This document shows positions 120-18,532 of a DNA stretch of 64,000 nt, one piece after another. Made by a program: the position numbers and the translations under genes. This stretch comes from an uncultured virus (IMG/VR IMGVR_UViG_3300046524_000154) (taxonomy: Duplodnaviria; Heunggongvirae; Uroviricota; Caudoviricetes). Every line of letters starts with the position of its first letter. The first letter of the stretch is position 1. The stretch lies in IMG/VR virus record IMGVR_UViG_3300046524_000154, one strand, 5' to 3'. The notes beneath the pieces were generated by a model. The model ran no database searches. It saw nothing but the letters and a program-made list of their open reading frames with translations, and was not told the DNA's origin.

Positions 120-581
120 ATGGACGATTTAGCGGTTGAGTCGGGCGCGTTATCGCGTATCGGCTCACAGGTAGGCGGAGCATTCCCCAAGGTGTACGGG
201 GCGCGCGCCGCTTGTGACGTGCACAGGGCGCGCTATGCGGCGTACTGGCGTACGGGGAACGGTTCGTGGTCTGCGATTTATCGCGGTCCAGATAGGGCGC
301 GCGCCGTTGCGGCGTTTCGGAAATTTCCGAAAGGTGCGGCATTCGTCGAGATGCGCGACGCGCTAACCGATGAGTTGCTAGGCGAGATGGGCCGCTATGA
401 CTTCAGTTCGGAAATTTCCGAATTGCTCGACCAAGCGGCGCGATGCGATGAGTACGAAACGACATCGCAGCGGGTTACCACGCGTGCCGGAAAGCGCCGA
501 CTCGAAACGAACCGGCGCGAGCTGCTTTTGAAGCGTGCCGCAGCGCTTTACATGTGCTGTCACTTGCCTGGCGGGGACTAA
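120..581 (+). CDS. hypothetical protein
   Basis: ORF with ATG at 120 after a G-rich tract; contains two palindrome copies read in different frames (RKFPK, SEISE). Confidence 0.5.
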   Translation: MDDLAVESGALSRIGSQVGGAFPKVYGARAACDVHRARYAAYWRTGNGSWSAIYRGPDRARAVAAFRKFPKGAAFVEMRDALTDELLGEMGRYDFSSEISELLDQAARCDEYETTSQRVTTRAGKRRLETNRRELLLKRAAALYMCCHLPGGD

Positions 582-635
582 GCGCCGGGTTTCGGTAGGG
601 TAACGTATCGGAAATTTCCGAAGGAGTACTAATCG

Positions 636-782
636 ATGCACACATTCAAACGGGCTGTGTTTCGGAAATTTCCGAATGTCGCAGCGGCGTATGTGCGGGG
701 CGATTTTGTGGTGTTCGCAGCGTGCTCGGTCGGCGCTGTTTTGGGGCTCTCCTTGGGAGTGATCTGGTGTAAGGTTTGCTGA
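636..782 (+). CDS. small putative membrane protein (48 aa)
   Basis: Palindrome+AAGGAG at 608-626, ATG 636; MHTFKRAVFRKFPNVAAAYVRGDFVVFAACSVGAVLGLSLGVIWCKVC has a hydrophobic C-terminus; below the ORF-track cutoff. Confidence 0.5.
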   Translation: MHTFKRAVFRKFPNVAAAYVRGDFVVFAACSVGAVLGLSLGVIWCKVC

Positions 783-808
783 GGGTTTGACGCCACATAT
801 ACATATAC

Positions 809-1257
809 GGTGCGAGTCGATTCTGACTCGCTCCCACTCGCTCCGCCCATGCTGGGCGGGAGATTAGGCGATTTGAAAGGTGCTGTAAGGTTGCGACTCG
901 CTCCCGTTTTTCTCTGACTCGCACCATTTATATATATGTAGCAGTAAGTTGCACTGCCAGATATATGTAAATGGTGCGAGTCGGGAGCGAGTCAAAGTCA
1001 AAAACTAACAATGCTCTCATTTATCGTGCTAAAGAGCTGATTTTGTACCGCATAGTTAATTTTCGATTGTTGCAAAAATTCGAGCTAATGCACCACATCA
1101 CGCGCTAACAATGCATTTACAGCGCGCACTAGGGCATTCGCAGCAACAATTCCGCGACTCGCTCCCGACTCGCTCCCACTCGCTCCGGCCATGCTGGTAT
1201 TGGCTCGCAGCGATCTGAACATTCGGAAATTTCCGAAAAACAGCGCGACTCGCTCCC
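809..1257. repeat. Iteron-like GACTCGC(T/A)CC(C) repeats, about 11 copies in both orientations
   Basis: Forward copies at 825, 836, 895, 916, 1156, 1167, 1178, 1247; reverse copies at 809, 973, 983; a 31-bp near-duplicate at 825-855 vs 1167-1197. Confidence 0.85.
916..982. repeat. Long inverted repeat / cruciform with AT-rich arms
   Basis: GACTCGCACCATTTATATATAT (916-937) pairs with ATATATGTAAATGGTGCGAGTC (961-982), 21/22; inner GCAGT/ACTGC stem. Confidence 0.85.
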
Positions 1258-1382
1258 GGTGAGGTGATTCGCAGCGACCTCACTCACCTTTGCAGCGAAA
1301 AGTGGTCTCATATATATATATTACTTAACATTTATTAAATATATATAATGTGATCAAGCAGGGGGGGGGTTGCGATTTTGGT

Positions 1383-1456
1383 GACCCCCCTCGGAACCGA
1401 CTTCTTATTTTTTCTGATTCCCAAAAATCCCCTGGTACTGTTCTCCGAGGGGGGTC
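1383..1456. repeat. 13-bp perfect inverted repeat next to a G9 run and an AT-rich tract
   Basis: GACCCCCCTCGGA (1383-1395) / TCCGAGGGGGGTC (1444-1456); G9 at 1361-1369; (TA)n tract at about 1310-1349. Confidence 0.8.
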
Positions 1457-1493
1457 TACTTTTTTGGGCGTCGCCACGGCTAGGTAAATATAT

Positions 1494-2420
1494 ATGTTCA
1501 CAGACTTCTTCAGCTACGACGGCGACGCAGCGGGCGCAGTTACCCCTCGCTGCGCGATTGATGACGAACTCGGCTTGATGTGGTCCGCAGCGGACCTCGT
1601 GCGTCTGCTCGGCTTGCAGCCCGCGAACACTAACCAGATGGTCAACTACGCGCCCGGCATGTCTCTCGTGGCGCCTGACTGCGGCCCGCGTCCGTTGCGC
1701 TTCATCGCGCACGAGGTCGCCATGCATTGGCTCCATAACCGTCTGGAGGGGCAGCGCGCATGGGCGCTATTCACGAGCTGGGCGCTGCTTCGGAAATTTC
1801 CGAAAGTGGCCGCGCCTGATGGGCTGCCGCGTCTGCGTGATTTCAGCGTGGACGATCCTGTGCTGAGTGGCCGCGCTGAGGACGTTGAGGCCGCGTTCCA
1901 GCGAATGCAGACCGCGCGCTATCACCTGACCGATCTCGTGTGCGGGAAGCCCCTGCGTGTACTGTATTTGCGCGGCAAGCCGTACGTTTCGTGGCCCGAC
2001 GTGTGTGACCTGTTGCCGGCCACCATGACGCATCTGGCGCGCAAGACGCAGGTCGGCACGCTGAAGTCCTATTTCCCGGACCATGCCGCGCATATCGAGC
2101 GTGTGCGTGGGCGCAACGGTGACCATGTCATCGTGATGACGCCTGAGCTGGTGTTGCTGATCGTGAGCCTCTACGCGGTCCCCGTCTATAACGAGCTGGT
2201 GACCCCGTCGAGCAGGGGGCGCACCAAGCCTGAAGTGTGGGCGCAGCACGCCGTCGAGCAGCCTGAGCACACGTTCGTTGCGACGCCGAAGTCTGTGCGC
2301 GATCGCCTGTTTGCACCGGGCACGCTCAGGGCAGAGCAGACGCCAGCAGCTGCGACTGAATTTGCAGCCGCGCAGTTCACCCCGCTCGATGTGATGCGCG
2401 CCAGTATCAAACCCGAATAA
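1494..2420 (+). CDS. putative DNA-binding protein with two degenerate BRO-N-like domains
   Basis: FSYDG..PRCAIDDELGLMWSAADLVRLLG and GKPLRVLYLRGKPYVSWPDVCDLL both resemble the BRO-N pattern (R-hydrophobic...P-W/Y-F...D-V-C..L). Confidence 0.55.
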   Translation: MFTDFFSYDGDAAGAVTPRCAIDDELGLMWSAADLVRLLGLQPANTNQMVNYAPGMSLVAPDCGPRPLRFIAHEVAMHWLHNRLEGQRAWALFTSWALLRKFPKVAAPDGLPRLRDFSVDDPVLSGRAEDVEAAFQRMQTARYHLTDLVCGKPLRVLYLRGKPYVSWPDVCDLLPATMTHLARKTQVGTLKSYFPDHAAHIERVRGRNGDHVIVMTPELVLLIVSLYAVPVYNELVTPSSRGRTKPEVWAQHAVEQPEHTFVATPKSVRDRLFAPGTLRAEQTPAAATEFAAAQFTPLDVMRASIKPE

Positions 2421-2508
2421 CCGGCCGACTCAAACCCGCGAATTGCGGCCAGTTATGCCCTTTGAATCCGCTTTACTCTGGCGTGTGAACCTGCCAGACT
2501 TGTATCTG

Positions 2509-2536
2509 CGCACCGACGACCAACCGGTGCGTTTTT
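2509..2536 (+). terminator. Rho-independent terminator
   Basis: CGCACCG-N9-CGGTGCG followed by TTTTT. Confidence 0.65.
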
Positions 2537-2594
2537 CATGTGCAGTCCCACACTCGCACTCAACCTTTTCGGAAATTTCCGAATGGAGTCCCAC

Positions 2595-3524
2595 ATGTCA
2601 ACAGTAGAAAAGAAACCGGCCGCGCCGGAAGGCTATACCGTGTGCCGCACGTCGACCCGATTCGAGGTCATCAACGACGGCGACACCTGCGTCTGGAACG
2701 ATATGCACCTGCGCAAGGTGAGCGCTGCTCACGCGGTCGAGGTAGGTGCGCCGGCCGATCGTCAGGGCCAGTACTTCGTCGGCCACCGCACCGAGGTCTG
2801 GCAGACGTTCGAGCACGCGAACGTAGCAATCGAGCGCCTCGAAAGCGCTGCGAACACGGTCGCGTCGAGTACGCTGAGTAAGCCGGCCACGCCGGAAGGC
2901 TATAACGTCGGTGGCTCGCCGATCGAGTTCAGCTGCCTGAACGTAGGCGACACGTTCATTAACGGCGTGCAGCACATGACCAAGCGCGACGATCACCACG
3001 CCGGGATAATCGGCTACGAGAACAGCGGAACCTACACTGTCTCCTTAGGGCGCAGGGTCTGGCAAACGTTCAAGCACGCTGATCTGTCGTGGGCCACCCC
3101 GGTCTCAGTTTCGGAAATTTCCGAACCCACGCCGCAGTTCGAACCGGGCGACTCGATCCGGCTCGCGATCCTGCCGCGCATTGATCATGAGGCTGAGATT
3201 ATTAGCCACGACGGTGAAAATCGCTGGCACGTTGCGGCCAAAGTCAACGGACAGCGTTTCGACTTCATCGTGTTCGAGCATCAGATCGTGAAGATGCAGC
3301 GCTACCTCGTGACGGGATTGTCCCGTCTCGGTGTAGCCGACGGCGGTGAATTCGCGTTCACGCCGCAATCGGCGATCGTCGAGGCTCACACAGCCGTCGA
3401 AGCGCGCAAGCTGGCGAAGGCGCTGCACAACGATTACTACCAGATCGTGACGTGCATGCTGATGCCTGCGACGCACTTCGAGCCTGAGTACTACGACGAT
3501 GAAGGCGTCGTGGCGTTCTACTGA
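2595..3524 (+). CDS. hypothetical protein with a tandem ~89-aa repeat and a C-terminal SH3-like module
   Basis: Palindrome+GGAG before ATG 2595; repeat units KPAxPEGY...VWQTFxHA; TPQFEPGD module shared with 7544..8077. Confidence 0.8.
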   Translation: MSTVEKKPAAPEGYTVCRTSTRFEVINDGDTCVWNDMHLRKVSAAHAVEVGAPADRQGQYFVGHRTEVWQTFEHANVAIERLESAANTVASSTLSKPATPEGYNVGGSPIEFSCLNVGDTFINGVQHMTKRDDHHAGIIGYENSGTYTVSLGRRVWQTFKHADLSWATPVSVSEISEPTPQFEPGDSIRLAILPRIDHEAEIISHDGENRWHVAAKVNGQRFDFIVFEHQIVKMQRYLVTGLSRLGVADGGEFAFTPQSAIVEAHTAVEARKLAKALHNDYYQIVTCMLMPATHFEPEYYDDEGVVAFY

Positions 3525-3525
3525 C

Positions 3526-3615
3526 ATGCTCACCGCGCTCATTTTCACTGGCCTGTGCACAGCCGCAGCACTCGCCAGCTACCTGATCTCCATCGCGCGA
3601 CTGGTGAGCGAATGA
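3526..3615 (+). CDS. small membrane protein (29 aa)
   Basis: MLTALIFTGLCTAAALASYLISIARLVSE; its stop overlaps the next start (ATGA). Confidence 0.5.
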   Translation: MLTALIFTGLCTAAALASYLISIARLVSE

Positions 3616-3767
3616 TCCATACTCTCACCCAGCCGCTCGTGCTCGCGGCGATACTGGCTTCACTTTTCCGTTGGCCCTCATTGACCATGTGGGCCATTTT
3701 TATCATCGCGTTGGCTGTCGCTGCGGCGGCCTGCACGGTGCAACTCTATCCGCAGCTGATTGTTTAA
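3612..3767 (+). CDS. small membrane protein
   Basis: MIHTLTQPLVLAAILASLFRWPSLTMWAIFIIALAVAAAAC..., two hydrophobic stretches. Confidence 0.6.
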   Translation: MIHTLTQPLVLAAILASLFRWPSLTMWAIFIIALAVAAAACTVQLYPQLIV

Positions 3768-3798
3768 CCAAAATCCACTTTCAATTCAGGGGTTCAAA

Positions 3799-4101
3799 AT
3801 GAAAAAGAATCTGATTGCATCAGCAGCTCTGTACCTGGCTTGCGGCATGGCAGTGGCCGGTACTGGCGGGGCGGGTAACGGCACGGCGGCGGGCGCGACT
3901 GGCGCGAGCTACGGCGGCTCGAACGGTTTCGGCAAGGCCGAGCTGGGCTATATGGACAACTGGCAGACGATGAACCCGGTTCAGCGCGAGAAGATTCAGG
4001 ACTCGCAGCCGAAACTGGCCTCGAAGCCGAGCGCGAAACCGGAATGGCCGGCGTGGGTGAAGGTAGCAGCACCGGCAGTCGTGCAGACCGCTGCGGAGTG
4101 A
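3799..4101 (+). CDS. putative exported Gly-rich protein
   Basis: MKKNLIASAALYLACGMAVA looks like a Sec signal peptide, followed by a Gly/Ala/Thr-rich stretch; AGGGG RBS. Confidence 0.7.
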   Translation: MKKNLIASAALYLACGMAVAGTGGAGNGTAAGATGASYGGSNGFGKAELGYMDNWQTMNPVQREKIQDSQPKLASKPSAKPEWPAWVKVAAPAVVQTAAE

Positions 4102-4111
4102 AGTAACGGGA

Positions 4112-4145
4112 CGGTGTGCATCGGGTGATGCACACCGCACATTTT
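4112..4145 (+). terminator. hairpin / probable terminator directly upstream of a palindrome
   Basis: CGGTGTGCATC-GGGT-GATGCACACCG, an 11-bp perfect stem followed by CACATTTT. Confidence 0.5.
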
Positions 4146-4168
4146 CGGAAATTTCCGAAGGAGAACAC

Positions 4169-4471
4169 GTGAAGCGCAACACCCTAAGGTGCCCGGCAGA
4201 ACTATCTGTGCTGCTGCATTACCACTACGGCGTCGGCCTTTATGAGCCGCGCTCGGCTGTGGCCAACGAGTCAGAGGACCATCTGATCGAGCATGGTCTG
4301 CTGGAGATGATTCCCAACACGATGCAACCCTGCAACGTTCGCATTACTGACATGGGGGAGTTCTTTGTCCATCACCTGATGACGGTGCCGTTTCCTGTGG
4401 CGACGGTGCAGTTCAGCATCCCTGAGGAACACTCGGAAATTTCAGAAGGAGATCAGGATGTCAGAGGTTGA
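4169..4471 (+). CDS. hypothetical protein
   Basis: Palindrome-AGGAG-GTG start. Confidence 0.8.
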   Translation: MKRNTLRCPAELSVLLHYHYGVGLYEPRSAVANESEDHLIEHGLLEMIPNTMQPCNVRITDMGEFFVHHLMTVPFPVATVQFSIPEEHSEISEGDQDVRG

Positions 4472-4637
4472 GTTGCAGGTTGCGCGCCTCACCGCAGCCC
4501 TCGTTCGCATGGTCGCGATGTACGAGAAGATGCTCGAAAAGACGAACGTCGGCGCGTCGTTCTACGATGCCGACACGATCCGCGAGATGAACGAGGCGCC
4601 GATTCAGGCTGCGCGTGCGCTCGCTGGCAGGGATTAA
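4458..4637 (+). CDS. hypothetical protein (59 aa)
   Basis: Variant palindrome at 4433 + AGGAG, ATG 4458; MSEVELQVARLTAALVRM...ALAGRD; not in the ORF track. Confidence 0.75.
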   Translation: MSEVELQVARLTAALVRMVAMYEKMLEKTNVGASFYDADTIREMNEAPIQAARALAGRD

Positions 4638-4676
4638 CCGCAGCACATTTCGGAAATTTCCGAAGGAGAGCATGAC

Positions 4677-4967
4677 ATGAAAGTAAAGATCATCGCGACG
4701 ATCGAGATGGAAGTCGCAAGCGAGAGCGAGGCGTTTGACACAGCCAACGAGATCCTGCGCCCAGTTATGTTCGATGAAGGCAGCGCGGTTATCGACTACA
4801 GCGTGCACGCTGCCGGTGAGCAGTTCACCATCGTGACCGGCGACCCGATCGACGGCATCAACCTGATCGGCGTATTCGACTGCTTCAGCGATGCGCAGGG
4901 GTATGTCGACACGCACCGTTTCGAGAGCAACTGGTGGATCACCAGCATCGATTCCGCCGTTGAATAA
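4677..4967 (+). CDS. hypothetical acidic protein
   Basis: Palindrome-AGGAG-ATG. Confidence 0.8.
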   Translation: MKVKIIATIEMEVASESEAFDTANEILRPVMFDEGSAVIDYSVHAAGEQFTIVTGDPIDGINLIGVFDCFSDAQGYVDTHRFESNWWITSIDSAVE

Positions 4968-5004
4968 CCGCAGCACATATCGGAAATTTCCGAAGGAGAA
5001 CACC

Positions 5005-5469
5005 ATGGAAGCGATTCACATCCACAGCTGGTCCGACATGCAGCAGCTCGGGCTCAACGTCCTCACCGGCGAGGCATGCAAATTCGCACAGCGGCTGCTG
5101 TGCGACGTGAACGAGGACGGCGCAGCGCTCATGCTGGACTACCTCGGCGTGGCGATGCTGGGCAAGAACTGGAACAGCACGGTGAACGGCAAGCCGGCCG
5201 TCGGCAGTGTGATGCTGCACCGTGAGTCACTGCTGCAGGTGGCTGAGTTCGCGATCCTGCGCATGCCCGATCTGAAGGCCATCATGTACAAGGGTGGCGA
5301 GGGTGTGTCGGGACTGTTCTCGAATCACGTCACGGGGCAGTACCTCGACCTGCTCAAGGACTGGCCGAACACGACGAACAAGTGGACCATGCGTCGTGTC
5401 GGCAAGAGCGATCCGAACGTGAGCGAAGGCTCGCGCAACATCCACCAGGCTTCGGGCCGGGTGGTCTGA
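5005..5469 (+). CDS. hypothetical phage protein
   Basis: Palindrome-AGGAG-ATG (MEAIHIH...); LTGEAC..RLLCD motif. Confidence 0.8.
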   Translation: MEAIHIHSWSDMQQLGLNVLTGEACKFAQRLLCDVNEDGAALMLDYLGVAMLGKNWNSTVNGKPAVGSVMLHRESLLQVAEFAILRMPDLKAIMYKGGEGVSGLFSNHVTGQYLDLLKDWPNTTNKWTMRRVGKSDPNVSEGSRNIHQASGRVV

Positions 5470-5478
5470 GGTAACGTG

Positions 5479-5556
5479 ATGAAGAGAACGCTTGGCGATG
5501 CGGCGTGGACAGTGCTCTGCGTAGTGGTGGGCTTTGTGCTCGGCCGCATCCTTTGA
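5479..5556 (+). CDS. small membrane peptide (25 aa)
   Basis: GAGG RBS; MKRTLGDAAWTVLCVVVGFVLGRIL exactly fills the gap before the next palindrome. Confidence 0.5.
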   Translation: MKRTLGDAAWTVLCVVVGFVLGRIL

Positions 5557-5594
5557 ACAGTAGTGCGTTTCGGAAATTTCCGAAGGGGAGCAAC

Positions 5595-5831
5595 ATGATA
5601 CTCAAACCTGAACAGGCCGCAGCGGTGTATGCCGCGATGGTGGCACTGAATAACGTGTGGGGCACTATCAGCTGCAAGATTCCTGCAGGCGTCACGCCCG
5701 GCGACACACGCAGGATTTTCGTGGAAGAACTGGAATCGAACGGACGTATCCGCGTGTCGTTCGATGCCAGTTCGCGAGGCGAACTCCACGACAATCAGAA
5801 CTCGTTCGCGAAAGCGTACGGTCTGGAATAA
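5595..5831 (+). CDS. hypothetical protein
   Basis: Palindrome-GGGGAG-ATG (MILKPEQ...). Confidence 0.75.
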   Translation: MILKPEQAAAVYAAMVALNNVWGTISCKIPAGVTPGDTRRIFVEELESNGRIRVSFDASSRGELHDNQNSFAKAYGLE

Positions 5832-5857
5832 CAACCGCAGCACAACAGGAGAGCGCC

Positions 5858-6106
5858 ATGCCGCCCAAAGTCGAACGCATCGAGTCCGCGCGAATGGACC
5901 GTCTTGAGCGCGTGGCGTTCGAGCGTCACAACAAACTGCTCGACCACCTTTCGGAAATTTCCGAAAGGATCGGCAAGCTGGAGTCAGTCACCGCGCTCGT
6001 GCTGGCGCATGTCAGCACGGACAATCAGACGTACGTGCGCATGCAAAAGACGATCGACGAGCTGCGCTCGCGCGTGGAAGAACTGGAGCGGGGCACCCCG
6101 CATTAA
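5858..6106 (+). CDS. hypothetical coiled-coil protein
   Basis: AGGAG RBS, MPPKVERIES...; contains an extended 22-bp palindrome at 5947-5968. Confidence 0.7.
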   Translation: MPPKVERIESARMDRLERVAFERHNKLLDHLSEISERIGKLESVTALVLAHVSTDNQTYVRMQKTIDELRSRVEELERGTPH

Positions 6107-6143
6107 TCGCAGCACACATCGGAAATTTCCGAAGGAGATTCAA

Positions 6144-6449
6144 ATGAAGCGAATGATGTTCATCGAGATGGACTTCCCCGATGGGTTACCTGACGGTGTC
6201 GTCGACTCCAACATCGAGCGACTGCAGGAGACGTTTGAGTCGATCATCGACCTGACGGGCTTTAGCAATAACACGATCCTGTACACAGCAGACGAGGACG
6301 CCGGTGCCGGCATGCGCGACGTGTTCGACATCGCTGCGCAGCAGGTCAACGAAACGAAAGTGCTCGGCGACAAGCACGCTCGGGCCATGCTGTTCATCGA
6401 CGACATGTGCACGGTGTTTGAGTGGCCGAAGGACGACACAGGTAGTTAA
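6144..6449 (+). CDS. hypothetical acidic protein
   Basis: Palindrome-AGGAG-ATG (MKRMMFIE...). Confidence 0.8.
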   Translation: MKRMMFIEMDFPDGLPDGVVDSNIERLQETFESIIDLTGFSNNTILYTADEDAGAGMRDVFDIAAQQVNETKVLGDKHARAMLFIDDMCTVFEWPKDDTGS

Positions 6450-6477
6450 TTTTCGGAAATTTCCGAAGGAGAATGTG

Positions 6478-7101
6478 ATGGACAAGTACATCGACCCGCG
6501 TCAGCAACTCATCGCAGCCGCTCAGGCTGCGCTCGACGACATCGAAGGCAACCTCGGCGAGACTGAGCGCAAGAACCTGTGCGCAGCGCTCAAGCGTAAT
6601 CGCTGGACCAACACGGACGAGAAGCTGCAGGAGCTGGCCGATCGTTACGCGCAGGCGAAGACCGCGCAGATGCAGCAGTTCTACGAGAAGATCGCGCAGC
6701 GCCACGGCGCCGAACGCGTGCGCAGCTTCAAGCCTGATGTGCGCACGTCCGTGCTCGATGATGGTCGCATCGAGATGTTCGGCAACAGTTTGCCGCCTAA
6801 TCCCGACCTGCTCGCGACGTACCCGAATGGGTGGGGATTGCATGATTACATCGAGCCGCGCGACGCTATGCACTTCTGCGACGTGCTGGAGAACAACATC
6901 GTTCGTGACTACGATGAAAATCGGCTGACCGATCCGAACTATCCGCACGCGTCGTGGCAGATCATCTTCAAGACGAAGGACGGTCTGGACTACTGCCGGG
7001 AAACGAAGTGGCGCGATGACACAATCACAGAGGTCGAGCAGTTCGCGCTGCAGACCATTCGCAATAACGACCTGGGTGGCGCAGTCATCCAGTTCTGGTG
7101 A
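6478..7101 (+). CDS. hypothetical protein
   Basis: Palindrome-AGGAG-ATG (MDKYIDPR...). Confidence 0.8.
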   Translation: MDKYIDPRQQLIAAAQAALDDIEGNLGETERKNLCAALKRNRWTNTDEKLQELADRYAQAKTAQMQQFYEKIAQRHGAERVRSFKPDVRTSVLDDGRIEMFGNSLPPNPDLLATYPNGWGLHDYIEPRDAMHFCDVLENNIVRDYDENRLTDPNYPHASWQIIFKTKDGLDYCRETKWRDDTITEVEQFALQTIRNNDLGGAVIQFW

Positions 7102-7109
7102 GGTGTGGC

Positions 7110-7505: not shown

Positions 7506-7543
7506 CCGCAACACACATTCGGAAATTTCCGAAGGAGAACAAC

Positions 7544-11423: not shown

Positions 11424-11448
11424 TCGGAAATTTCCGAAGGAGCCTGAA

Positions 11449-11703
11449 GTGAAGAACAAAGTCAAATATTCCAACATCACGCTGTCCGGTACCGTGATGC
11501 ACAAAGGCCACGAGTACCTGTATTTCACGATCGACGGAGACACGTTCTACGAATGGCAGCGGGGCTCGCAGACGATCAACACCAAGGCCGCCCCGCACTA
11601 CGAGTCGCAGGACTTGGAATGCTTCAGCATGAGCTACGCCAAAGAGAAGCCGACCGTGCGCGACGCGATGTCCTGCATTCTCGACTACGTCAACGAGAGG
11701 TGA
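11449..11703 (+). CDS. hypothetical protein, paralog of 8444..8698
   Basis: Palindrome-AGGAG-GTG; shared motifs with 8444. Confidence 0.8.
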   Translation: MKNKVKYSNITLSGTVMHKGHEYLYFTIDGDTFYEWQRGSQTINTKAAPHYESQDLECFSMSYAKEKPTVRDAMSCILDYVNER

Positions 11704-11707
11704 TGAC

Positions 11708-12382
11708 GTGCCATTCCGACCACTATCCGAAGTAGGTTCCTCACGCGGCGCCCCGATGGGCCGCCGCAACACCGAGGGCGATCCCGACGTCGCCCACCGC
11801 CTCTATCTGCACCCGCTACCCTTCATCGACGGCGATTACGACGCGGGCGGCGCTTACTGGGGCGCAGGGAGCGACGGAGAGGCCATCTGGCGGGCCGTCG
11901 AGGATGACGGCGACGTGGAGCTATTCTTTCGCGCCACAAACCGCGCTATGGCCCTCGTAGCGGTTCTGGATGAGTATCCGCTCGCGGTGATCCTGCCGAC
12001 GCCGCGCGAAGGCTGGTTTGACGACTTCGTGGAGGGTTACGTGACGGCGGCGCTGTGGTCGAGCACGGACGTTGTCGACGGCGAGGATGTCGAGCTGGAT
12101 AAGTACGAGCTGGCCGATACCACTCGTGAGAAGATGCGCGCCGAGTGCAGCGAGTTTGCCGATGCGCACGGCGAGAAGATCGCTGAGGCGGCCAGTGTGA
12201 ACGGCTACACGGCCGAGCGTGCCGGCCACGACTTCTGGATGACACGCGCCCGGACGGGTGTGGGCTACTTCGACCGCCAGGAGCTGCCCGAAGAGTTGCG
12301 CGAGTATCTGGACAAGGCGGCAGAGGCGGCTGGCGAGCGTGACCTGTATCTGGGTGACGATGAGCTGGTTTATCAATCGTAG
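11708..12382 (+). CDS. conserved phage hypothetical protein (two-module fusion)
   Basis: GAPMGR...YD.GGAYWG module followed by an ALWSS...AGHDFW.TR...G.G.FDR module. Confidence 0.8.
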   Translation: MPFRPLSEVGSSRGAPMGRRNTEGDPDVAHRLYLHPLPFIDGDYDAGGAYWGAGSDGEAIWRAVEDDGDVELFFRATNRAMALVAVLDEYPLAVILPTPREGWFDDFVEGYVTAALWSSTDVVDGEDVELDKYELADTTREKMRAECSEFADAHGEKIAEAASVNGYTAERAGHDFWMTRARTGVGYFDRQELPEELREYLDKAAEAAGERDLYLGDDELVYQS

Positions 12383-12412
12383 GTAATCGGAAATTTCCGA
12401 AGGAGACTTATC

Positions 12413-12607
12413 ATGGCGAAGTACCGTGTAACTGTACCTTTCGTCGACGACATGGGCAGCGTCATGCCTTTCGTCGCTTCCAGCAGTCCAATGGAGTCGA
12501 AAGAGCAGAACGCGCTGTGGACCATCAACAGCATGCGCGACCACGACGGGTTGCCGCGCCTCACGCGCATGCCGGCTGGAACGAAGTTCGAGCGTGTCGA
12601 AGACTGA
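12413..12607 (+). CDS. hypothetical protein
   Basis: Palindrome-AGGAG-ATG. Confidence 0.75.
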   Translation: MAKYRVTVPFVDDMGSVMPFVASSSPMESKEQNALWTINSMRDHDGLPRLTRMPAGTKFERVED

Positions 12608-12653
12608 CACGTCGCACCTGCGACACATTCGGAAATTTCCGAAGGAGCCTGAA

Positions 12654-13160
12654 GTGAAAAAGCTATTCTTTATCGAGGTCACCGACACGTTCGGCGGCGA
12701 AGCCAACTACAGCTGGGTGACGCGCCACGTGATCGCTGCAACGACCGATCGCGGCGCCGTGAATCGCTTCTCGAAGATGTCCGGTTACGAGTGGCATGTC
12801 GAGGGCGACTACGGCGACAGCAAGCGCTACGACTCGAAGTCGGGCGCTACGTGCTTCTTCATCAGCGAGTACGACAACAGCAGCCCGGCAGTGCACAACT
12901 TCGACACGGACGAGCGCGAGACGAAGGTCGTGTTCCGCAAGTTCAAGGAAGGCGACGTGATTGCGCTGATCTGCGGCACGGCGGCAGACTGCAGGCCTGG
13001 TATGGTGATGAGCTACCAGCGCGTCGGGCAGCACGGTGAGGTGTCCCGCTGGCTGGGTAACGATCTGAAGCTCGCGACGCCTGAAGAGTACGCCGCGCTC
13101 AAGCGTGAGCTGGAAGGAATCTATGGACCGATCACAGCAGTGGATCGGCTGGTAGCGTAA
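12654..13160 (+). CDS. conserved phage hypothetical protein (two-module fusion)
   Basis: TDTFGGEANYSWV module plus a VVFRK...SY..VGQH module; GTG start after the palindrome. Confidence 0.8.
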   Translation: MKKLFFIEVTDTFGGEANYSWVTRHVIAATTDRGAVNRFSKMSGYEWHVEGDYGDSKRYDSKSGATCFFISEYDNSSPAVHNFDTDERETKVVFRKFKEGDVIALICGTAADCRPGMVMSYQRVGQHGEVSRWLGNDLKLATPEEYAALKRELEGIYGPITAVDRLVA

Positions 13161-13185
13161 TCGGAAATTTCCGAAGGAGAAAAGA

Positions 13186-13752
13186 ATGTCTAGCATTATT
13201 GCAAACATGATCGACGCCAATGCGCGTCGTGCCCGAGTCCTCGAACTGCTGCGTCAGGCCGCGATCGCGCAGGTCGAATTCTGGGCGCTGCAGACGCGGC
13301 TGGAGTCGGCGATGCTCGACGGCCAGGAGATGGAAGATGACGCCAGTGACAAAGTGCTGGAGTTCATCAAGGATCTTGCAGCCGCTGCACCGGAGGGTCA
13401 CAGCAATGAGGTCTACGACGCGATCGTGGATGAACATGTGACTGAACTGTTCCGCGATGTGTCTCCTGGCGTGAAGCAGGTCGAAGTGACCATCCCACCA
13501 AAGTCCTGTACGCAGCGCTACGATGAGCGGCCTTACTGCGGCGAGCAGGTATTCAGCGGCTCGCTGAGGAGAGGCATGCTTGTGCGATACGACGCGGGCT
13601 CGACCGCGCTCGTAGAACTGACCTCTCCGCATGCAGGCGGCTGGCATGGGAAGCAGTGCATGGGCGGCAGCACCTTTGTCTCGGGACGTCTGTACGAAGC
13701 GACTGATCTCGATCGCGAAATATGGGCCGAGTGCTCGCCGTGGAGGAAGTGA
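13186..13752 (+). CDS. hypothetical protein
   Basis: Palindrome-AGGAG-ATG. Confidence 0.75.
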   Translation: MSSIIANMIDANARRARVLELLRQAAIAQVEFWALQTRLESAMLDGQEMEDDASDKVLEFIKDLAAAAPEGHSNEVYDAIVDEHVTELFRDVSPGVKQVEVTIPPKSCTQRYDERPYCGEQVFSGSLRRGMLVRYDAGSTALVELTSPHAGGWHGKQCMGGSTFVSGRLYEATDLDREIWAECSPWRK

Positions 13753-14081
13753 TGGAAGGTAACGCGAAGGAGCGGGCCAAAGCCATCGCGCTACCCGACG
13801 CGGCGTATAAGCGGATGATCGCCGAGGCGCCAGAGTGCCGGAAGCTGCAGCACTACTGGTTTTATATGCAGCAAAATCCGAACGCCCGCATGTTTAGGGA
13901 AAGCGATCTGTGCATCATCGCAGGGTACGCTTTCACGAAAATGACTGTGATTCTCAAAGGGAGCAAGCAGCAACTCACGCAGCTGCTTATGGACGGCAAG
14001 AACATCAGGTATCGCATCGCGATGCAGATGGTGTGGGAACGACACTTATCGGAAATTTCCGAAGGAGAAAGCAATGCCTAA
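13752..14081 (+). CDS. hypothetical protein
   Basis: GGAGG RBS, coupled start MEGNAKE... Confidence 0.65.
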   Translation: MEGNAKERAKAIALPDAAYKRMIAEAPECRKLQHYWFYMQQNPNARMFRESDLCIIAGYAFTKMTVILKGSKQQLTQLLMDGKNIRYRIAMQMVWERHLSEISEGESNA

Positions 14082-14646
14082 CAAACTGGTGTACAGCATC
14101 GAGAAAGGACTGCGCGTACAGAAGACGCCGACCTCGCACCTCGACCCGGAAGTGCGCCGCTCCATGAGCTATATCAGCGCACGCAAGAAGCCGCGCTGGT
14201 TCTACAGCGGCGATCTCGACATCCAGAACGGCGGCACGTTCTATAACCTCGACAACTGGCCGCACTATGTCGACGCGTGGCGCGTTTCTCCCTGCAGCGA
14301 TGCAGGAGGGCCAGACAACGTTTTCTGGCTCGAAGAGTTGACCGTCAATGTGGACCCGAAAATGGTGAACCACGGAGGTCGCATGGAGAGTGCGCTCCGT
14401 CTGATTGGCGTGAGTGACGATGAGTTCAACGCGCTCTCTGTCAATCGACAACGTCACGTGATCGTAGGTGCCTACCTGGCTTACGGTCTATATGACCAGT
14501 GCAGCAGCAGGGTCGTCATGGTCGGCCCTCGGCCAGACGAGTTATGGGAAAGTCGCGGCGGCTTCGAGATGCCCGGAGTCGATACCACGCTGCGCAGTAA
14601 CGTCGATTTGAAAAAGTGGCTTCGTGCCCGCGTGAACGCACTTTAA
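14074..14646 (+). CDS. hypothetical protein
   Basis: Palindrome-AGGAG-ATG. Confidence 0.75.
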   Translation: MPNKLVYSIEKGLRVQKTPTSHLDPEVRRSMSYISARKKPRWFYSGDLDIQNGGTFYNLDNWPHYVDAWRVSPCSDAGGPDNVFWLEELTVNVDPKMVNHGGRMESALRLIGVSDDEFNALSVNRQRHVIVGAYLAYGLYDQCSSRVVMVGPRPDELWESRGGFEMPGVDTTLRSNVDLKKWLRARVNAL

Positions 14647-14656
14647 GGAGAACACG

Positions 14657-15049
14657 TTGAACAAGCAGGAATCACAGGCGCTGTACAAGGAGCTGCTGGC
14701 AAAGCGCGTCAAACTCGACAAGGAGATCGAGGCCGCGCGTGTGACGGCAGCGCGCCACGCGATCGAGACGTGCAAGCAGCTGATCGAAGAGTTCGCGCTG
14801 ACCACGGTCGATCTCGGCTTCGTGAAGGCGCAGCACGTGCCGGCTGCGAAGGTGAAGAACAGCGACAAGACGTTCGCAGCGAAGAAGCCCAAGTCGGTGA
14901 AGCCGCCGAAGTACGTCGATCCGAAAAGCGGCAAGACGTGGAGCGGTTACGGCCACGCGCCGTCGTGGATTGTGGGTAATCGTGATGATTACCTGATCAG
15001 GACTGAGCCGTCGAAGCGGACGACGCAGAACAACAAGCAGGAACACTAA
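14657..15049 (+). CDS. hns: H-NS family nucleoid protein (Burkholderia Bv3F-like) with a variant DNA-binding loop
   Basis: N-terminal YKELLA...L..EIEAAR coiled coil; C-terminal PPKYVDPKSGKTWSGYGHAPSWI (canonical KY.DP..G.TWSGRGR.P.W); AAGGAG RBS with TTG start. Confidence 0.9.
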   Translation: MNKQESQALYKELLAKRVKLDKEIEAARVTAARHAIETCKQLIEEFALTTVDLGFVKAQHVPAAKVKNSDKTFAAKKPKSVKPPKYVDPKSGKTWSGYGHAPSWIVGNRDDYLIRTEPSKRTTQNNKQEH

Positions 15050-15072
15050 TCGGAAGTTTCCGAACGGAGAAG

Positions 15073-15429
15073 ATGATGGCTGACGTAACTAACATGAGCA
15101 ACACGATCGCACGCCACGAGGTACTCGCAGCGATTGCCTACTACGCTGGTGAGCTGAAAGAAAACCCGGCAGACTTCGACGACATGGACGAGTTGTCGAA
15201 TCTGCGCAGCGTGCTCGAAGAAGCCGACAGCTCGTCAGGGTCGCGCGAGGACTGGTTGCTCATCCGCGACGAGTACTTCGAGCAGTGGTGCGAGGACTAT
15301 GCGAATGGCATGGGTCCGACCGACGGCTGGCCGTACAACTGCATCGACTGGGCTAAGGCAGCGACATCCCTGAAGCAGGATTACAAGCAGGTCGAGTACG
15401 ACGGCACGACGTACTGGGTGCGAGCATGA
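15073..15429 (+). CDS. acidic protein, ArdA-C-terminal-like putative antirestriction/DNA mimic
   Basis: Acidic; LIRDEYF...WPY.CIDW.KAA..LKQDY..VEYDG.TY resembles the ArdA-related ID(W/Y)e.aArdl..DY motif. Confidence 0.5.
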   Translation: MMADVTNMSNTIARHEVLAAIAYYAGELKENPADFDDMDELSNLRSVLEEADSSSGSREDWLLIRDEYFEQWCEDYANGMGPTDGWPYNCIDWAKAATSLKQDYKQVEYDGTTYWVRA

Positions 15430-15611
15430 GCACCCAGCACAACATGTACTACGCAGCGGAGCGGAGCGCTGCCGAAGTCTCGCTTCAGTTCCTTGAGTTC
15501 GTGAAGGACGGAATGACGCGCGAGGAACTGGAGCGGAACATCGAGCGCAGGCCCGCGCTGTGGGGTCGCTTTAGCGCGTGGCTGGACAAGCTACCGTCGA
15601 AACGAGACTAG
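15426..15611 (+). CDS. hypothetical protein
   Basis: ATGA-coupled ORF. Confidence 0.7.
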   Translation: MSTQHNMYYAAERSAAEVSLQFLEFVKDGMTREELERNIERRPALWGRFSAWLDKLPSKRD

Positions 15612-15620
15612 GAGGCAGTC

Positions 15621-15899
15621 ATGGCATGTGGAGTGATGATCACGCGCACGCTGGACATGCGGCGCACCGGCTGCGAATCGTGGTGGATTGTCGAGACGCT
15701 CTGGAAGCACGGCGCACACACCGCCTTCGCATTCAAGGCACGCAGCGACGCGGACGAGGTCGCATGTGGCAACGCCGCCGAAGAAGTAGCCAAGGAGGTC
15801 GCGCTCTGGCAGGTGCTGGCTGCGCCGGGCACGTCACTTGACGATGTTCAGGCGTTCGCGAAGGAGAACCGCGCAATTCGCGACGGTCGAGTGCAGTGA
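15621..15899 (+). CDS. hypothetical protein
   Basis: AGGAGG RBS. Confidence 0.7.
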   Translation: MACGVMITRTLDMRRTGCESWWIVETLWKHGAHTAFAFKARSDADEVACGNAAEEVAKEVALWQVLAAPGTSLDDVQAFAKENRAIRDGRVQ

Positions 15900-15973
15900 G
15901 TAAGCAGTAAAGAACCCGCGCTATCCAGTGCGGACAATCGAATATTTTCGGAAATTTCCGAAGGAGTAACACC

Positions 15974-16534
15974 ATGTCTGAAGCCAAGAAAATGACCCTC
16001 GACGAAATGGCACAACAACTCGTGCGCACCGAGGTCTACTACAACATCAGCTCGCTGGTTAGCGACCTCAACACACTTGTGTCGAGCGCAGATCCGAAGA
16101 CGCTGCAGAACGTTGGCGTCGATCAGGACCAGCTGATGACCCTGATGATTCAGGACGATTGGGAAGAGCCCGCGAGCGACTACATCCGCAGCCTTGACCG
16201 CGAGGATTTGGTCAACGAACTGGAGCTGAAGGATATCGAGTTCGACCCGGCAGGGAGCGACGAAGATCTCCAGAAACTGCTGATCGCTCACCTCGACGAA
16301 GAGGGTGAGTTTCAGGAGTTCTGCAACGACAACCGGCTCGACCCGAACACCGACGAGGTGTATGAGCACTGGATCGTGTCGGACTTTCTCGCCGGCAGGC
16401 TCGCCGAGAAGGGCGCGGTCGTCGATACCGACGTGAGCGGCTTGACGATCTGGGGCCGCACGACGACCGGCCAGATGGTGTACATGGACTGGATCATCCA
16501 GCAGATCGCGCAAGACATGCTCGACTCGAAATGA
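15974..16534 (+). CDS. highly acidic conserved phage protein
   Basis: Palindrome-AGGAG-ATG; EHWIVSD.LA..L...G.....WGRTTTGQ motif; D/E-rich. Confidence 0.8.
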   Translation: MSEAKKMTLDEMAQQLVRTEVYYNISSLVSDLNTLVSSADPKTLQNVGVDQDQLMTLMIQDDWEEPASDYIRSLDREDLVNELELKDIEFDPAGSDEDLQKLLIAHLDEEGEFQEFCNDNRLDPNTDEVYEHWIVSDFLAGRLAEKGAVVDTDVSGLTIWGRTTTGQMVYMDWIIQQIAQDMLDSK

Positions 16535-16752
16535 CCTACGGCCCCTACACCACAGCAGCCGCTGCGATGGAAGGGGCCAGCGTCGAACTCGACTATGTGC
16601 GCCGCGCTTACCCCGCGTGGCGGACTGAGCAGGGTGAAGCGATGATCGACGACCAGATCAACGGTTTCGCCCTGCAGTTCGGTGTCGTGCTGGAGCAACG
16701 CGACGATGCGTGGTTCTGGACAACGCCCGACGAAGAAGCGACCCTGGCATAA
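16531..16752 (+). CDS. hypothetical protein
   Basis: ATGA-coupled ORF. Confidence 0.65.
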   Translation: MTYGPYTTAAAAMEGASVELDYVRRAYPAWRTEQGEAMIDDQINGFALQFGVVLEQRDDAWFWTTPDEEATLA

Positions 16753-16803
16753 TTTTCCTATCGCTACCTTTGGCGATGCAGTCCCACCTCGAAGGAGAAC
16801 TTG

Positions 16804-17007
16804 ATGAACTCAAAATATCGCCTGCGGGCGACGTTGAAGACAGGCCGCTATCACGTGGTCGAGGGCAAGAGCCTGGAGAACCTGAAGAAGAAAGGTCGCC
16901 AGCTCGAAAACGAGGGTGCTTACGGCTACGTCGAGCACATGGACAACCACCGCGTGATGTTCGGTTTCGGCCAACAGGAGACACAGCATGCTGACGCTAC
17001 TGCGTGA
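16804..17007 (+). CDS. hypothetical protein
   Basis: GAAGGAG RBS. Confidence 0.7.
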   Translation: MNSKYRLRATLKTGRYHVVEGKSLENLKKKGRQLENEGAYGYVEHMDNHRVMFGFGQQETQHADATA

Positions 17008-17353
17008 TGTCCTGATTGTGTGGGGCTTGATGAAAGACACCCCTTCCCTGAAAGCCGAGCGCGAGACGAACTCGGCCGACCTGCAGCTGCTCGAAGTCGA
17101 GTCGCTGCACGAGGAAGCGGAACACGCCGCGCGTCTGCTGCGGTACCGGATCAGCCGACTGGCGACCCGCGTCTGCGTCGGCGCCGGTGTCGAGTCCCGC
17201 GTGACGCGGCAGATCGCCGACGCGCGCATCAAGCTGATGGAGAAGGAAGCCGAGGCTGAAGAGCTGGCGGCCAAGGTCACCATGCTGCGCGAGCGTATCA
17301 GCCGGCTGAAGCGGCTCGTGAGCGCAGGCGACACAGCACTCGCAGCTGCGTGA
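16988..17353 (+). CDS. hypothetical coiled-coil protein
   Basis: AGGAG RBS. Confidence 0.7.
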   Translation: MLTLLRDVLIVWGLMKDTPSLKAERETNSADLQLLEVESLHEEAEHAARLLRYRISRLATRVCVGAGVESRVTRQIADARIKLMEKEAEAEELAAKVTMLRERISRLKRLVSAGDTALAAA

Positions 17354-17402
17354 TCCCCCGAATAGGGGATGTTTCTGGGTTCAAATCGCAGAATAAAGCG
17401 AA

Positions 17403-17431
17403 TTGACAAACAGACACATCCCCTTTAATCT
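17403..17431 (+). promoter_or_regulatory. sigma70-like promoter
   Basis: TTGACA (17403)-N17-TAATCT (17426) in an AT-rich intergenic gap after the ATCCCC/GGGGAT hairpin (17353-17370). Confidence 0.7.
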
Positions 17432-17450
17432 ATTAATCTGGAGTAAAGAG

Positions 17451-17810
17451 ATGCACCCCGAAATCAGGAAGTTCGAGATCGCGCTCAGTTTCACCCGCGA
17501 CCAGATCGAGGTGCTGAGAGCGATCGGCCAGAGCCCGTCACGAGCCAAGCTCGTACTGATGCCCGAAGCCACACGCAGCGGCAAACCGACCGGCAACATG
17601 ATTTACATCCACGCAGCATTCAAAACGCTGCGACGTATGGGTCTGACCCGAGCAAGTACAGAAAACCATCGTAACACCTGGCACCTGACGACCACAGGCG
17701 CACAGGTCTACGAGCAACTATTCAACTCCAGTCCCACCCTGGAAGAGAACGATGACAACGAACCCGAAGTTCGCGCCAAACGAGCGCGTGACGCTGGACG
17801 GCAGCGGTGA
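17451..17810 (+). CDS. putative winged-helix protein
   Basis: GGAG RBS; FTRDQIEVLRAI...AFKTLRRMGL...WHLTTTG.Q.Y resembles wHTH. Confidence 0.5.
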   Translation: MHPEIRKFEIALSFTRDQIEVLRAIGQSPSRAKLVLMPEATRSGKPTGNMIYIHAAFKTLRRMGLTRASTENHRNTWHLTTTGAQVYEQLFNSSPTLEENDDNEPEVRAKRARDAGRQR

Positions 17811-17928
17811 ACCCCAACCGCTGATCGTCAAGAAAATCCACCAATGGCCCGGCGCGGAGACGCGCTACACGGTCACAGCCGGCGACCGGGAATACACCCT
17901 TCCCGAGTCGCAGCTCCACAGCGTCTGA
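17752..17928 (+). CDS. small SH3-like protein (58 aa)
   Basis: MTTNPKFAPNERVTL...RYTV...LPESQL; PKFxxxxxV start similar to the TPQFEPGD modules; not in the ORF track. Confidence 0.55.
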   Translation: MTTNPKFAPNERVTLDGSGEPQPLIVKKIHQWPGAETRYTVTAGDREYTLPESQLHSV

Positions 17929-17969
17929 CGACGCGCCTTTTCTTTCGGAAGTTTCCGAAGGAGTCCAAA

Positions 17970-18467
17970 ATGGGTAACGACGCATACGAGCACGCCGCAC
18001 GTATTTGCGAAGGCGTCGTCGCGCAAAGTCGCAACTCGATCTTTCGCAGCGCAGCGAAGATCTGCGCCGCGCTGATCCGCGACGAGGCACAAAAACAAGC
18101 TGGAGGCAACGTGAAGCACACAGCAAGCGTCTACAACATCTGGTTCAGCGACGAAGGTCTGGCGACGATCATTCTGCCGAAGGATGCCGACGTCATCTTC
18201 GCTCGCGACTGCAGCATCGCCAATGGCTGCGAGATCCACGTGATAGAACACGCGGACGAAGTTCGGATGGACCCGCGAAAGTTTCATCTCGTGCGGCCTA
18301 ACGAGCCGATGCCGACGTGCGTTGGCAGCGGTGATCGGGTGTCGTCTTTCGTGCACTGTAGCGGCGAAGTCTGGCACATCTTCGCCGGCCAGTACGATCG
18401 CGGCGTCATGACCAAAGAGATGCCGGCGCAGCACCGCGCCATCACGAAGCTGCAGACCAACGATTAA
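17970..18467 (+). CDS. hypothetical protein
   Basis: Variant palindrome-AGGAG-ATG (MGNDAYE...). Confidence 0.7.
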   Translation: MGNDAYEHAARICEGVVAQSRNSIFRSAAKICAALIRDEAQKQAGGNVKHTASVYNIWFSDEGLATIILPKDADVIFARDCSIANGCEIHVIEHADEVRMDPRKFHLVRPNEPMPTCVGSGDRVSSFVHCSGEVWHIFAGQYDRGVMTKEMPAQHRAITKLQTND

Positions 18468-18532
18468 TTAGGGTCCGAACGGAAGTTCGGGACAGTCAAA
18501 AATTTTTTCGGAGATTTCCGAAGGTGACCATC

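Follow-up and report, generated by a model that had tools for sequence, protein, structure and literature searches.

The left end of an uncultured virus of the Caudoviricetes (IMG/VR record IMGVR_UViG_3300046524_000154) raises the question why one palindrome of 14 bp, TCGGAAATTTCCGA, should stand directly before the start codons of many small and mutually unrelated genes, and what could be reading it. We analysed a stretch of 64,000 nucleotides of this phage, to which we refer as the window. The palindrome was found to be under very strong purifying selection, and the array that it forms to be restricted to one phage lineage, in which it is kept almost invariant. We tentatively favour the view that it is an operator bound by a protein.

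The palindrome array and its contact with Shine-Dalgarno sequences

The palindrome occurred in 28 exact copies and 5 copies with one mismatch between positions 317 and 18521, and nowhere else in the window, exactly as a first-pass annotation of the sequence had claimed. The mean number of copies in 100 dinucleotide-preserving shuffles was 0.00, versus the 33 observed. Copies with two mismatches were found nowhere in the 64 kb, and the sites are therefore either near-perfect or absent. All copies share one transcription direction.

At 26 of the 33 copies the palindrome abuts a Shine-Dalgarno (SD) sequence with a gap of zero, in line with the roughly 26 copies that had been noted before a ribosome-binding site and a start codon. 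AGGAG follows directly 3' of the palindrome at 21 copies, variants occur once each (AGGGG at 5570, AGGAT at 10965, ACGGAG at 15050, AGGTG at 18508 and ATGGAG at 2569), and an ATG or GTG lies 3-9 nt past the SD at the 26 SD-linked copies. From 4145 to 18508 this applies to 25 of 26 copies, with the copy at 5951 as the sole exception. The zero gap holds also for copies that have a long spacer (43-134 nt) on their 5' side. In 8 of the 33 cases the palindrome begins right after the stop codon of the gene before it, which leaves nothing but repeat, SD and spacer between the two genes. We also found a second, looser motif, TAA(C/T)CGCAGCACA, 5' of the palindrome at a fixed offset in 8 of the 33 copies (e.g. 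4636-4649, 4966-4979, 6105-6118 and 7505-7518) and in 7 of the 27 copies of a related contig described below (G001), which lengthens the shared junction to ~34 nt.

The array had been described as punctuating the region into single-gene cassettes. This holds for the 26 copies at gene starts and not for the other seven, six of which are intragenic (317, 408, 662, 1790, 3111 and 5951) and one of which is non-coding (1223). All seven have the form of a 16-bp palindrome, TTCGGAAATTTCCGAA (T at -1 and A at +1), and the longer palindromes reported earlier, of 18 bp at 315-332 and 22 bp at 5947-5968, were found again. The genes between the repeats are indeed unrelated, with one clear paralogous pair and one marginal match in an all-against-all blastp comparison of 49 window open reading frames (ORFs). 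The members of the pair (8444-8698 and 11449-11703) are 46% identical, are both 84 aa long, start with GTG and have their own palindrome each. The individual copies are as follows (G001 and G003 being related contigs, and X2, X3 and X4 other sequencing runs):

317-330: exact; inside ORF 105-581, RKFP frame; 18-bp palindrome 315-332; conserved in G001 and G003
408-421: exact; inside ORF 105-581, other frame (SEISE); 16-bp palindrome
608-621: exact, then AGGAG, 9 nt and ATG; 48-aa ORF 636-782
662-675: exact; inside ORF 636-782 (RKFP)
1223-1236: exact; in the non-coding, repeat-rich region 783-1493
1790-1803: exact; inside ORF 1494-2420 (RKFP); a copy also in the ~30%-identical G001 homologue
2569-2582: exact, then ATGGAG and ATG at 2595; gene 2595-3524
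3111-3124: exact; inside gene 2595-3524 (SEISE); homology of a variant contig begins at 3110
4145-4158: exact, at SD; gene 4169-4471
4433-4446: variant C12A, at SD; gene 4458-4637; overlaps the 3' end of gene 4169-4471
4650-4663: exact, at SD; gene 4677-4967; CGCAGCACA spacer 5'
4980-4993: exact, at SD; gene 5005-5469; CGCAGCACA spacer 5'
5570-5583: exact, then AGGGG; gene 5595-5831; repeat and gene missing as a unit in contigs of runs X3 and X4
5951-5964: exact, without SD; inside ORF 5858-6106 (SEISE); 22-bp palindrome 5947-5968
6119-6132: exact, at SD; gene 6144-6449
6453-6466: exact, at SD; gene 6478-7101
7519-7532: exact, at SD; gene 7544-8077
8078-8091: exact, at SD; gene 8103-8417; upstream stop codon abuts
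8419-8432: exact, at SD; gene 8444-8698
8704-8717: variant A7G, at SD; gene 8730-9074 (DUF3846)
9088-9101: exact, at SD; gene 9113-9805
9806-9819: exact, at SD; gene 9831-10244; stop codon abuts
10462-10475: exact, at SD; NinX-like gene 10485-10964; G001 orthologue without a copy
10965-10978: exact, then AGGAT; gene 10989-11423; variant junctions at 10982
11424-11437: exact, at SD; gene 11449-11703
12387-12400: exact, at SD; gene 12413-12607; a contig of run X2 joins 12406 to 12625
12629-12642: exact, at SD; gene 12654-13160
13161-13174: exact, at SD; gene 13186-13752
14049-14062: exact, at SD; gene 14074-14646
15050-15063: variant A7G, then ACGGAG; gene 15073-15429
15948-15961: exact, at SD; gene 15974-16534
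17945-17958: variant A7G, at SD; gene 17970-18467; after a terminator-like hairpin (17921-17934); G001 orthologue without a copy
18508-18521: variant A6G, then AGGTG; gene 18533-19012; final copy of the array

The phage and its relatives

The window covers ~64 kb, with 57-66% G+C, of an uncultured lytic phage of the siphovirus type whose whole genome is roughly 85 kb; it is probably a phage of the Gram-negative type, and its host in the rhizosphere is probably a proteobacterium. The first 19 kb contain about 40 small ORFs on the + strand, almost none of which belongs to a known family. Between ~20 and 46 kb, again on the + strand, lie genes for replication and nucleotide metabolism (encoding a MazG-like protein, helicases, a primase, PolA, a ligase, SbcCD-like proteins, a dNMP kinase, a T5-type 5'-deoxyribonucleotidase, a methyltransferase and thymidylate synthase), and from 47.8 kb on the - strand carries lysis and tail genes. 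No RNA polymerase, sigma factor, integrase, repressor or ribonuclease was recognised among the window ORFs scanned. In a megablast search with positions 1-20000, none of the 50,697 deposited phage records of INPHARED was a near match, and PolA is 26-28% identical to PolA of the Pseudomonas phages PMBT3, UAntarctica and Lana and of some Vibrio phages. Sequencing runs that contain window sequence carry rhizosphere or soil metagenome labels.

A scan of IMG/VR with a 19-mer (the repeat plus AGGAG) yielded three related contigs. The first, G001 (85,240 bp, rated complete), has 27 copies of the palindrome, all within 63,396-80,866 (17.5 kb), and the other two, G002 and G003, which come from one sample and are probably one phage, have 7 copies each, at the contig ends. 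The motif scan that had been proposed as a check thus gave 33, 27, 7 and 7 copies in the window and its relatives, all in the same block, and a reversed-pattern control gave 0 copies in the relatives. Gene order is collinear between the window and G001, and shared genes are 69-81% identical in DNA between the window and the relatives (G001 and G002/G003 are 92-98.5% identical in aligned blocks). A homologue in G001 exists for only 21 of the 46 gene models of the window, the remaining genes being replaced there by unrelated small genes, most of which are preceded by the repeat as well.

Elsewhere the palindrome was found as isolated copies. Cultured phages (INPHARED, 37-nt repeat query) gave only single-copy chance matches in 47 records, a scan of metagenome contigs with the 19-mer gave 23 loci, all single-copy, and no further relatives, and 185,579 prokaryote species genomes gave 6 loci with the same 19-mer, again all single-copy; with this 19-mer, the bare 14-mer being left out of the scan, no host repeat family (REP/MITE-like) was seen in the species genomes. 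Scans with PolA and A1 returned known relatives only. The palindrome is also missing from five more distant phages (L017-L021) that share the protein encoded at 20223-20891 at 55-57% identity, and the repeated words in these phages are coding repeats or an iteron cluster. The latter, in L019 (1088-1210), consists of five copies of GGTTACCGAA in ~130 bp, is iteron-like and is unrelated to the palindrome.

Conservation and variation of the site

In 12 securely orthologous pairs of copies, 3 of 168 positions differ (P about 3e-17 at 25% divergence), the contact between palindrome and SD is kept, and the spacers from SD to ATG vary freely. Since the repeat is fixed while the spacers drift, the targets of selection are the repeat and the way it abuts the SD, and the leaders have not simply been copied and pasted. 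The true site is probably the 16-bp form, TTCGGAAATTTCCGAA, with a 14-bp core. Position +1 is an A in 59 of the 60 copies of the window and G001, position -1 is a T or an A in 58 of 60 (the A often being the final base of an abutting TAA stop codon), and 6 of the 7 copies without SD in G001 have both the T at -1 and the A at +1.

Across the four sequence sets we found nine copies with one mismatch, seven of which are changed in positions 6-9 (three A7G, two T8C, the latter in orthologous copies, one A6G and one T9C) and two in the arms, which together have ten positions. A tolerant A/T-rich centre between two invariant arms of 5 bp is the geometry expected of operators for dimeric DNA-binding proteins. 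The 14-bp operators of phage 434 may offer a comparison.

The intragenic copies are read in two frames, as RKFP (317, 662 and 1790) and as SEISE (408, 3111 and 5951). Those at 317 and 408 recur unchanged in G001, whose version of the gene around them shows 77% identity at the protein level, and the ~30%-identical G001 homologue of ORF 1494-2420 has a copy at a similar place and in the same frame. The occurrence of copies without SD inside genes and at 1223 argues that the element has some function independent of the SD. ESM Atlas returned nothing for ORF 105-581. The non-coding region 783-1493, partly conserved in G001 and G003, contains ~8 copies of GACTCGCTCCC, which occurs in both orientations, together with an inverted repeat of 30 nt (916-945 and 953-982), A/T blocks (~1305-1350) and two G/C hairpins followed by T-runs (~1365-1465); it looks like a replication origin, or like a control or injection-stop region.

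Exchange of genes at the repeats

One of the three options offered in the first-pass annotation was that the repeat serves to gain, lose and shuffle expression-ready cassettes, so that gene indels in relatives would break exactly at it. Between G001 and G002/G003 we found four replacements or insertions. In one of these, homology begins 3 nt 5' of a repeat, and another consists of an extra gene between a stop codon and a repeat, ending 2 nt before the repeat; the other two are unrelated to repeats. Some breakpoints thus lie at the repeat as predicted and others do not. Between the window and G001, synteny was broken at 10 of 13 junctions with a repeat versus 6 of 9 junctions without one, so that exchange at the repeat was seen, but no enrichment.

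Contigs of four other rhizosphere runs were placed on positions 1-20000. Among the 15 joints listed of 52, 10 of 30 endpoints lie between -12 and +9 nt from a repeat, versus ~6% expected by area. The joints of 12406 to 12625 and of 4671 to 7507 would most simply be repeat-to-repeat deletions, the aligned pieces overlapping on the shared junction, and those of 10982 to 11709 and of 15431 to 14048 place other genes behind a repeat. Among the 24 loose ends listed, 5 are at repeat edges (3110, 9803, 10982, 11423 and 12385) and 19 elsewhere. The exact stretch common to the junctions is ~20 nt, and the word of the Logan assembly is 31. As the shared stretch is shorter than this word, the joints were taken as real variants and not as assembly chimeras. 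Exchange at the repeat junction thus appears to occur, but it is confounded, because most gene boundaries carry a repeat. Given this confounding and the lack of enrichment, shuffling is more readily seen as a consequence than as a selected function.

RNA structure and promoters

The repeat is predicted to form an RNA hairpin of 5-6 bp (-5.7 to -6.6 kcal/mol) that has positions 6-9 in its loop and leaves the SD free, and the longer dyads at 317 and 5951 are predicted to fold to -15 kcal/mol. That the repeat directly touches the SD also suggests an effect on translation. No Rfam family matched the repeat, and only spurious miRNA-like matches were found, on the 916-982 inverted repeat. One sigma-70-like promoter was found in 20 kb versus 5.5 expected, none lies at a repeat, and looser promoter rules gave weak sites only. 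The earlier suggestion of a dedicated phage system is supported, the array being confined to a lineage, near-invariant and explained by neither an Rfam family nor a sigma-70-type promoter.

Candidate readers

A protein that reads the palindrome should be conserved in all three lineages. We considered two genes:

17448-17807, + strand: 119-aa lineage-specific protein, putative candidate reader; predicted symmetric homodimer; no repeat before its own gene
14657-15049, + strand: H-NS-like protein with a C-terminal H-NS domain; alternative reader

The relatives of the 17448-17807 protein form 5 clusters in 5.8 billion proteins, all of this lineage. Its homodimer model scored 0.71, versus 0.00 for the best control (in the calibration, 20 of 30 homodimers and 1 of 23 monomers of solved structure reached the mark), with at least 96% contact agreement between runs and a partner pLDDT of at least 77. 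In the modelled dimer, residue 9 contacts residue 8, 11 contacts 7 and 12 contacts 6, which implies paired antiparallel N-terminal strands; with the two helices that follow, these would recall ribbon-helix-helix proteins. We regard the protein as a weak candidate for the reader of the palindrome.

The H-NS C-terminal domain of the 14657-15049 protein was recognised by Pfam with 29.7 bits (cutoff 25.6). The protein is 73% identical in G001 and G002, and its loop reads YGH where the usual H-NS motif is QGR. Scans of the window proteins against Pfam and PHROGs gave no helix-turn-helix (HTH) or Aca family.

A proposed multi-copy operator and its rivals

The explanation that we prefer, although we would give it slightly less than an even chance, is that of a multi-copy operator for a phage-encoded dimeric regulator of an early block of genes, possibly acting on the mRNA hairpin too. 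A multi-copy operator was the first of the options in the first-pass annotation, and it would agree with the way in which the site varies and with the copies that are not at gene starts; the second option, a role in translation or RNA, would fit the zero gap to the SD. We therefore favour a protein-bound operator that may act on DNA and on RNA. A sequence-specific dimer, most likely phage-encoded, would bind the putative 16-bp dyad, which would tag the left 18 kb of small rightward genes for regulation as one unit. On DNA, a dimer sitting at every gene start would serve as an operator or a roadblock, a mode of action that has been reported for the stoperators of mycobacteriophage L5. Each copy would also be transcribed as a 5-6-bp hairpin touching the SD, on which the same protein could block ribosome loading in the way that Aca2 does on its operon (see below), and the likeliest effect would be a coordinated shut-off of the early genes. 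The candidate protein encoded at 17448-17807 sits near the far end of the block without a repeat before its own gene, and this late position, if it is the reader, would provide a built-in delay. As a side effect, the shared junction of 19-34 nt would be the place of cassette swaps and deletions. A more far-reaching version, which we consider unlikely, is a 'translational stoperator', in which one small dimer, made last, would read the dyad both as duplex DNA and as mRNA hairpin and shut off ~25 unrelated early genes, the shared junction acting as an integrase-free plug through which newly recombined genes would be expressed and timed at once.

Several observations weigh against a multi-copy operator of this kind. 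No promoter was located in the 20 kb for the sites to control, and a roadblock on DNA alone leaves the zero gap to the SD unaccounted for. We infer an early host-takeover block in the left 18 kb from its position and gene content. Only three close lineages were compared, so that the finding of no compensatory stem changes among the nine one-mismatch copies across the four sequence sets weighs little. As to the 17448-17807 protein, the AlphaFold monomer is poor (pLDDT 47.7), its MarR/HxlR-like neighbours in ESM Atlas have a TM of 0.52-0.56, below the tool's bar, and no DNA-binding family was found for it by sequence in Pfam, PHROGs and PDB, with the whole protein or its halves.

Among the rivals, an element that acts in RNA only (a translational operator for an RNA-binding protein, a signal for processing or stability, or a device for translational coupling) seems to us unlikely, though by no means negligible; in its processing variant the hairpin would cut a long early transcript into units with protected ends. 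The zero gap at 26 of 33 copies, kept in orthologues despite the drifting spacer, the stop codons that abut 8 of 33 copies, the single-stranded SD in the predicted hairpin and the one direction of all copies would speak for it. Nevertheless, the loop varies and the stem is fixed, the reverse of what most loop-reading RNA binders would require, seven copies lack an SD (one of them in non-coding DNA amid iteron-like repeats), neither a ribonuclease-like protein among the ORFs scanned nor an Rfam match was found, and the stem has only 5-6 bp, which is too short for RNase III. We consider it improbable that recombination is the primary function, with repeat and SD as a PeSL-like micro-homology linker for the gain, loss and reordering of expression-ready cassettes. 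The ends of the G001/G002 replacements 3 and 2 nt from repeats and the listed joint endpoints near repeats (10 of 30 versus ~6% expected) are consistent with it, but synteny breaks are not enriched at repeats (10 of 13 versus 6 of 9 junctions), two of the four G001 versus G002/G003 replacements and 19 of the 24 listed loose ends are not at a repeat, and gene boundaries, most of which carry the repeat, are the only viable breakpoints anyway. Recombination would moreover need no perfect dyad and leaves the intragenic copies unexplained, and no integrase was seen among the ORFs scanned. Recombination between copies has also been proposed for the Cluster O repeats discussed below, according to the excerpted text of PMC4351075.

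Still less probable is that the AT-rich core flanked by GC is a high-affinity nucleation site for a protein of the H-NS family, the host's or the phage's own (14657-15049), that coats or bridges the early block. The phage does encode the protein with an H-NS C-terminal domain described above, which is shared with the relatives at 73% identity, and the core matches, in an ungapped comparison, 7 of 10 positions of TCGATAAATT, which we take to be the H-NS consensus site. H-NS-type binding is loose, and would not fix ten GC-containing arm positions, and the loop of the phage protein deviates from the usual one as described above. TCGATAAATT occurs in the excerpted text of PMC2094087, on high-affinity H-NS sites. 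We give very little credence to a promoter element for a phage-modified host RNA polymerase, which would make each cassette its own transcription unit. Sigma-70-like promoters are nearly missing from the 20 kb, and some other signal may therefore drive transcription, but a palindromic promoter would fire both ways, the distance from repeat to start codon is only ~16-20 nt, the intragenic copies would start transcripts within genes, and scanning the ORFs gave neither a phage RNA polymerase nor a sigma factor. Integron cassettes were considered and rejected: integrons have the tyrosine recombinase IntI and attC sites of ~57-141 bp, and here the site is a perfect dyad of 14-16 bp with no integrase among the ORFs scanned.

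Comparison with known systems

No known system that we compared matches the array on all defining features, and the kind of element is known yet unexplained. We found no report of this motif in the literature searched, subscription journals being outside its scope. For the multi-copy operator that we favour, the working model of a roadblock is provided by the stoperators of Cluster A mycobacteriophages, sites of the L5 repressor, which are dozens of operator-like sites in short intergenic gaps that act on genes far from promoters. Stoperators, which are carried by temperate phages that have an immunity repressor, are asymmetric, orientation-dependent and spread over the whole genome; the site described here is palindromic and not asymmetric.

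The closest published analogue is the 17-bp palindrome of the Cluster O mycobacteriophages. In the excerpted text of PMC4351075, these repeats (TGTTCGGNNNCCGAACA) number more than 30 copies per genome, have invariant inverted arms and a variable A/T-rich centre, are both intergenic and intragenic, do not occur in other phages and have indels at copies; the authors suggested a dimeric regulator and left the function unexplained. The present array resembles them, as far as that text goes, in having more than 30 copies, invariant inverted arms, a variable A/T-rich centre, both intergenic and intragenic sites, a restriction to its own phages, an association with indels at copies and identical TTCGG/CCGAA arm cores. 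It differs in its arms and centre (7-bp arms and a 3-bp centre, TGTTCGG-N3-CCGAACA, in Cluster O versus (T)TCGGAAATTTCCGA(A) with a centre of 4-6 bp here), in its distribution (genome-wide and including structural genes there, a single 17.5-18-kb block both in the window and in the complete G001 here) and in its position (not at the SD and in phages of an actinobacterial host there, against the SD at 26 of 33 copies here).

The start-associated sequences (SAS) of Cluster K mycobacteriophages, in the excerpted text of PMC3203893 (where Cluster A stoperators are named as well), occur in 11-19 copies directly before the starts of unrelated non-structural genes, are associated with AGGAG and are conserved across subclusters; a role in translation was suggested and the function left unexplained, and the accompanying ESAS, inverted repeats of 17 bp, are imperfect and have spacers that vary. 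Our palindrome is like SAS in lying immediately 5' of the start codons of non-structural genes (26 of 33 copies) and in its association with AGGAG, and unlike it in that SAS, as given there, is an asymmetric 13-mer, GGGATAGGAGCCC, that includes the SD and has one orientation, whereas here a perfect palindrome lies 5' of the SD. The HTH regulators Aca2 and Aca1 bind, in the excerpted text of PMC13551039, a DNA inverted repeat and 5'-UTR (untranslated region) hairpins, and their motifs also occur between genes of anti-defence operons. The hairpin next to a ribosome-binding site and between genes is common to both, and there one dimer reads DNA and RNA; that system has one to three sites per locus, versus 33 here, where neither an Aca-family protein nor an Rfam match was found. 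The PeSL elements of T4-like phages are described in the excerpted text of PMC2839356 as short conserved units around small ORFan genes in variable regions, with modular shuffling. They provide the analogy for shuffling. Unlike our repeat, at which no promoter was found and which forms a short hairpin followed by AGGAG without a T-run, they have a strong sigma-70 promoter and a terminator stem-loop.

The function of SAS (2011) and of the Cluster O palindromes (2015) was left unexplained in the excerpted text of those papers. The present array is a cleaner case, because it is a perfect dyad, welded to the SD and confined to one block, in a lytic phage of probably Gram-negative type, with natural variants that exchange cassettes at the junction. 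If a single reader exists, the system would illustrate how the takeover and anti-defence genes of a phage, a large and fast-evolving set, are timed, and synthetic operons could use the site as a compact tag by which many genes are co-regulated.

Other features of the window

Among the tail-fibre genes, on the - strand, 49114-51228 encodes a 704-aa protein with an FAD-dependent oxidoreductase domain and a Golvesin C-terminal domain, and an enoyl-CoA hydratase-like gene (51681-52172) adjoins it, which is odd content for a tail module. Finally, four gene starts in the region 20900-38530 (20928, 23029, 24627 and 38524) have a C-rich stretch, e.g. TTACCCACCC, directly 5' of AAGGAG, which may represent a second class of leader, separate from the palindrome.

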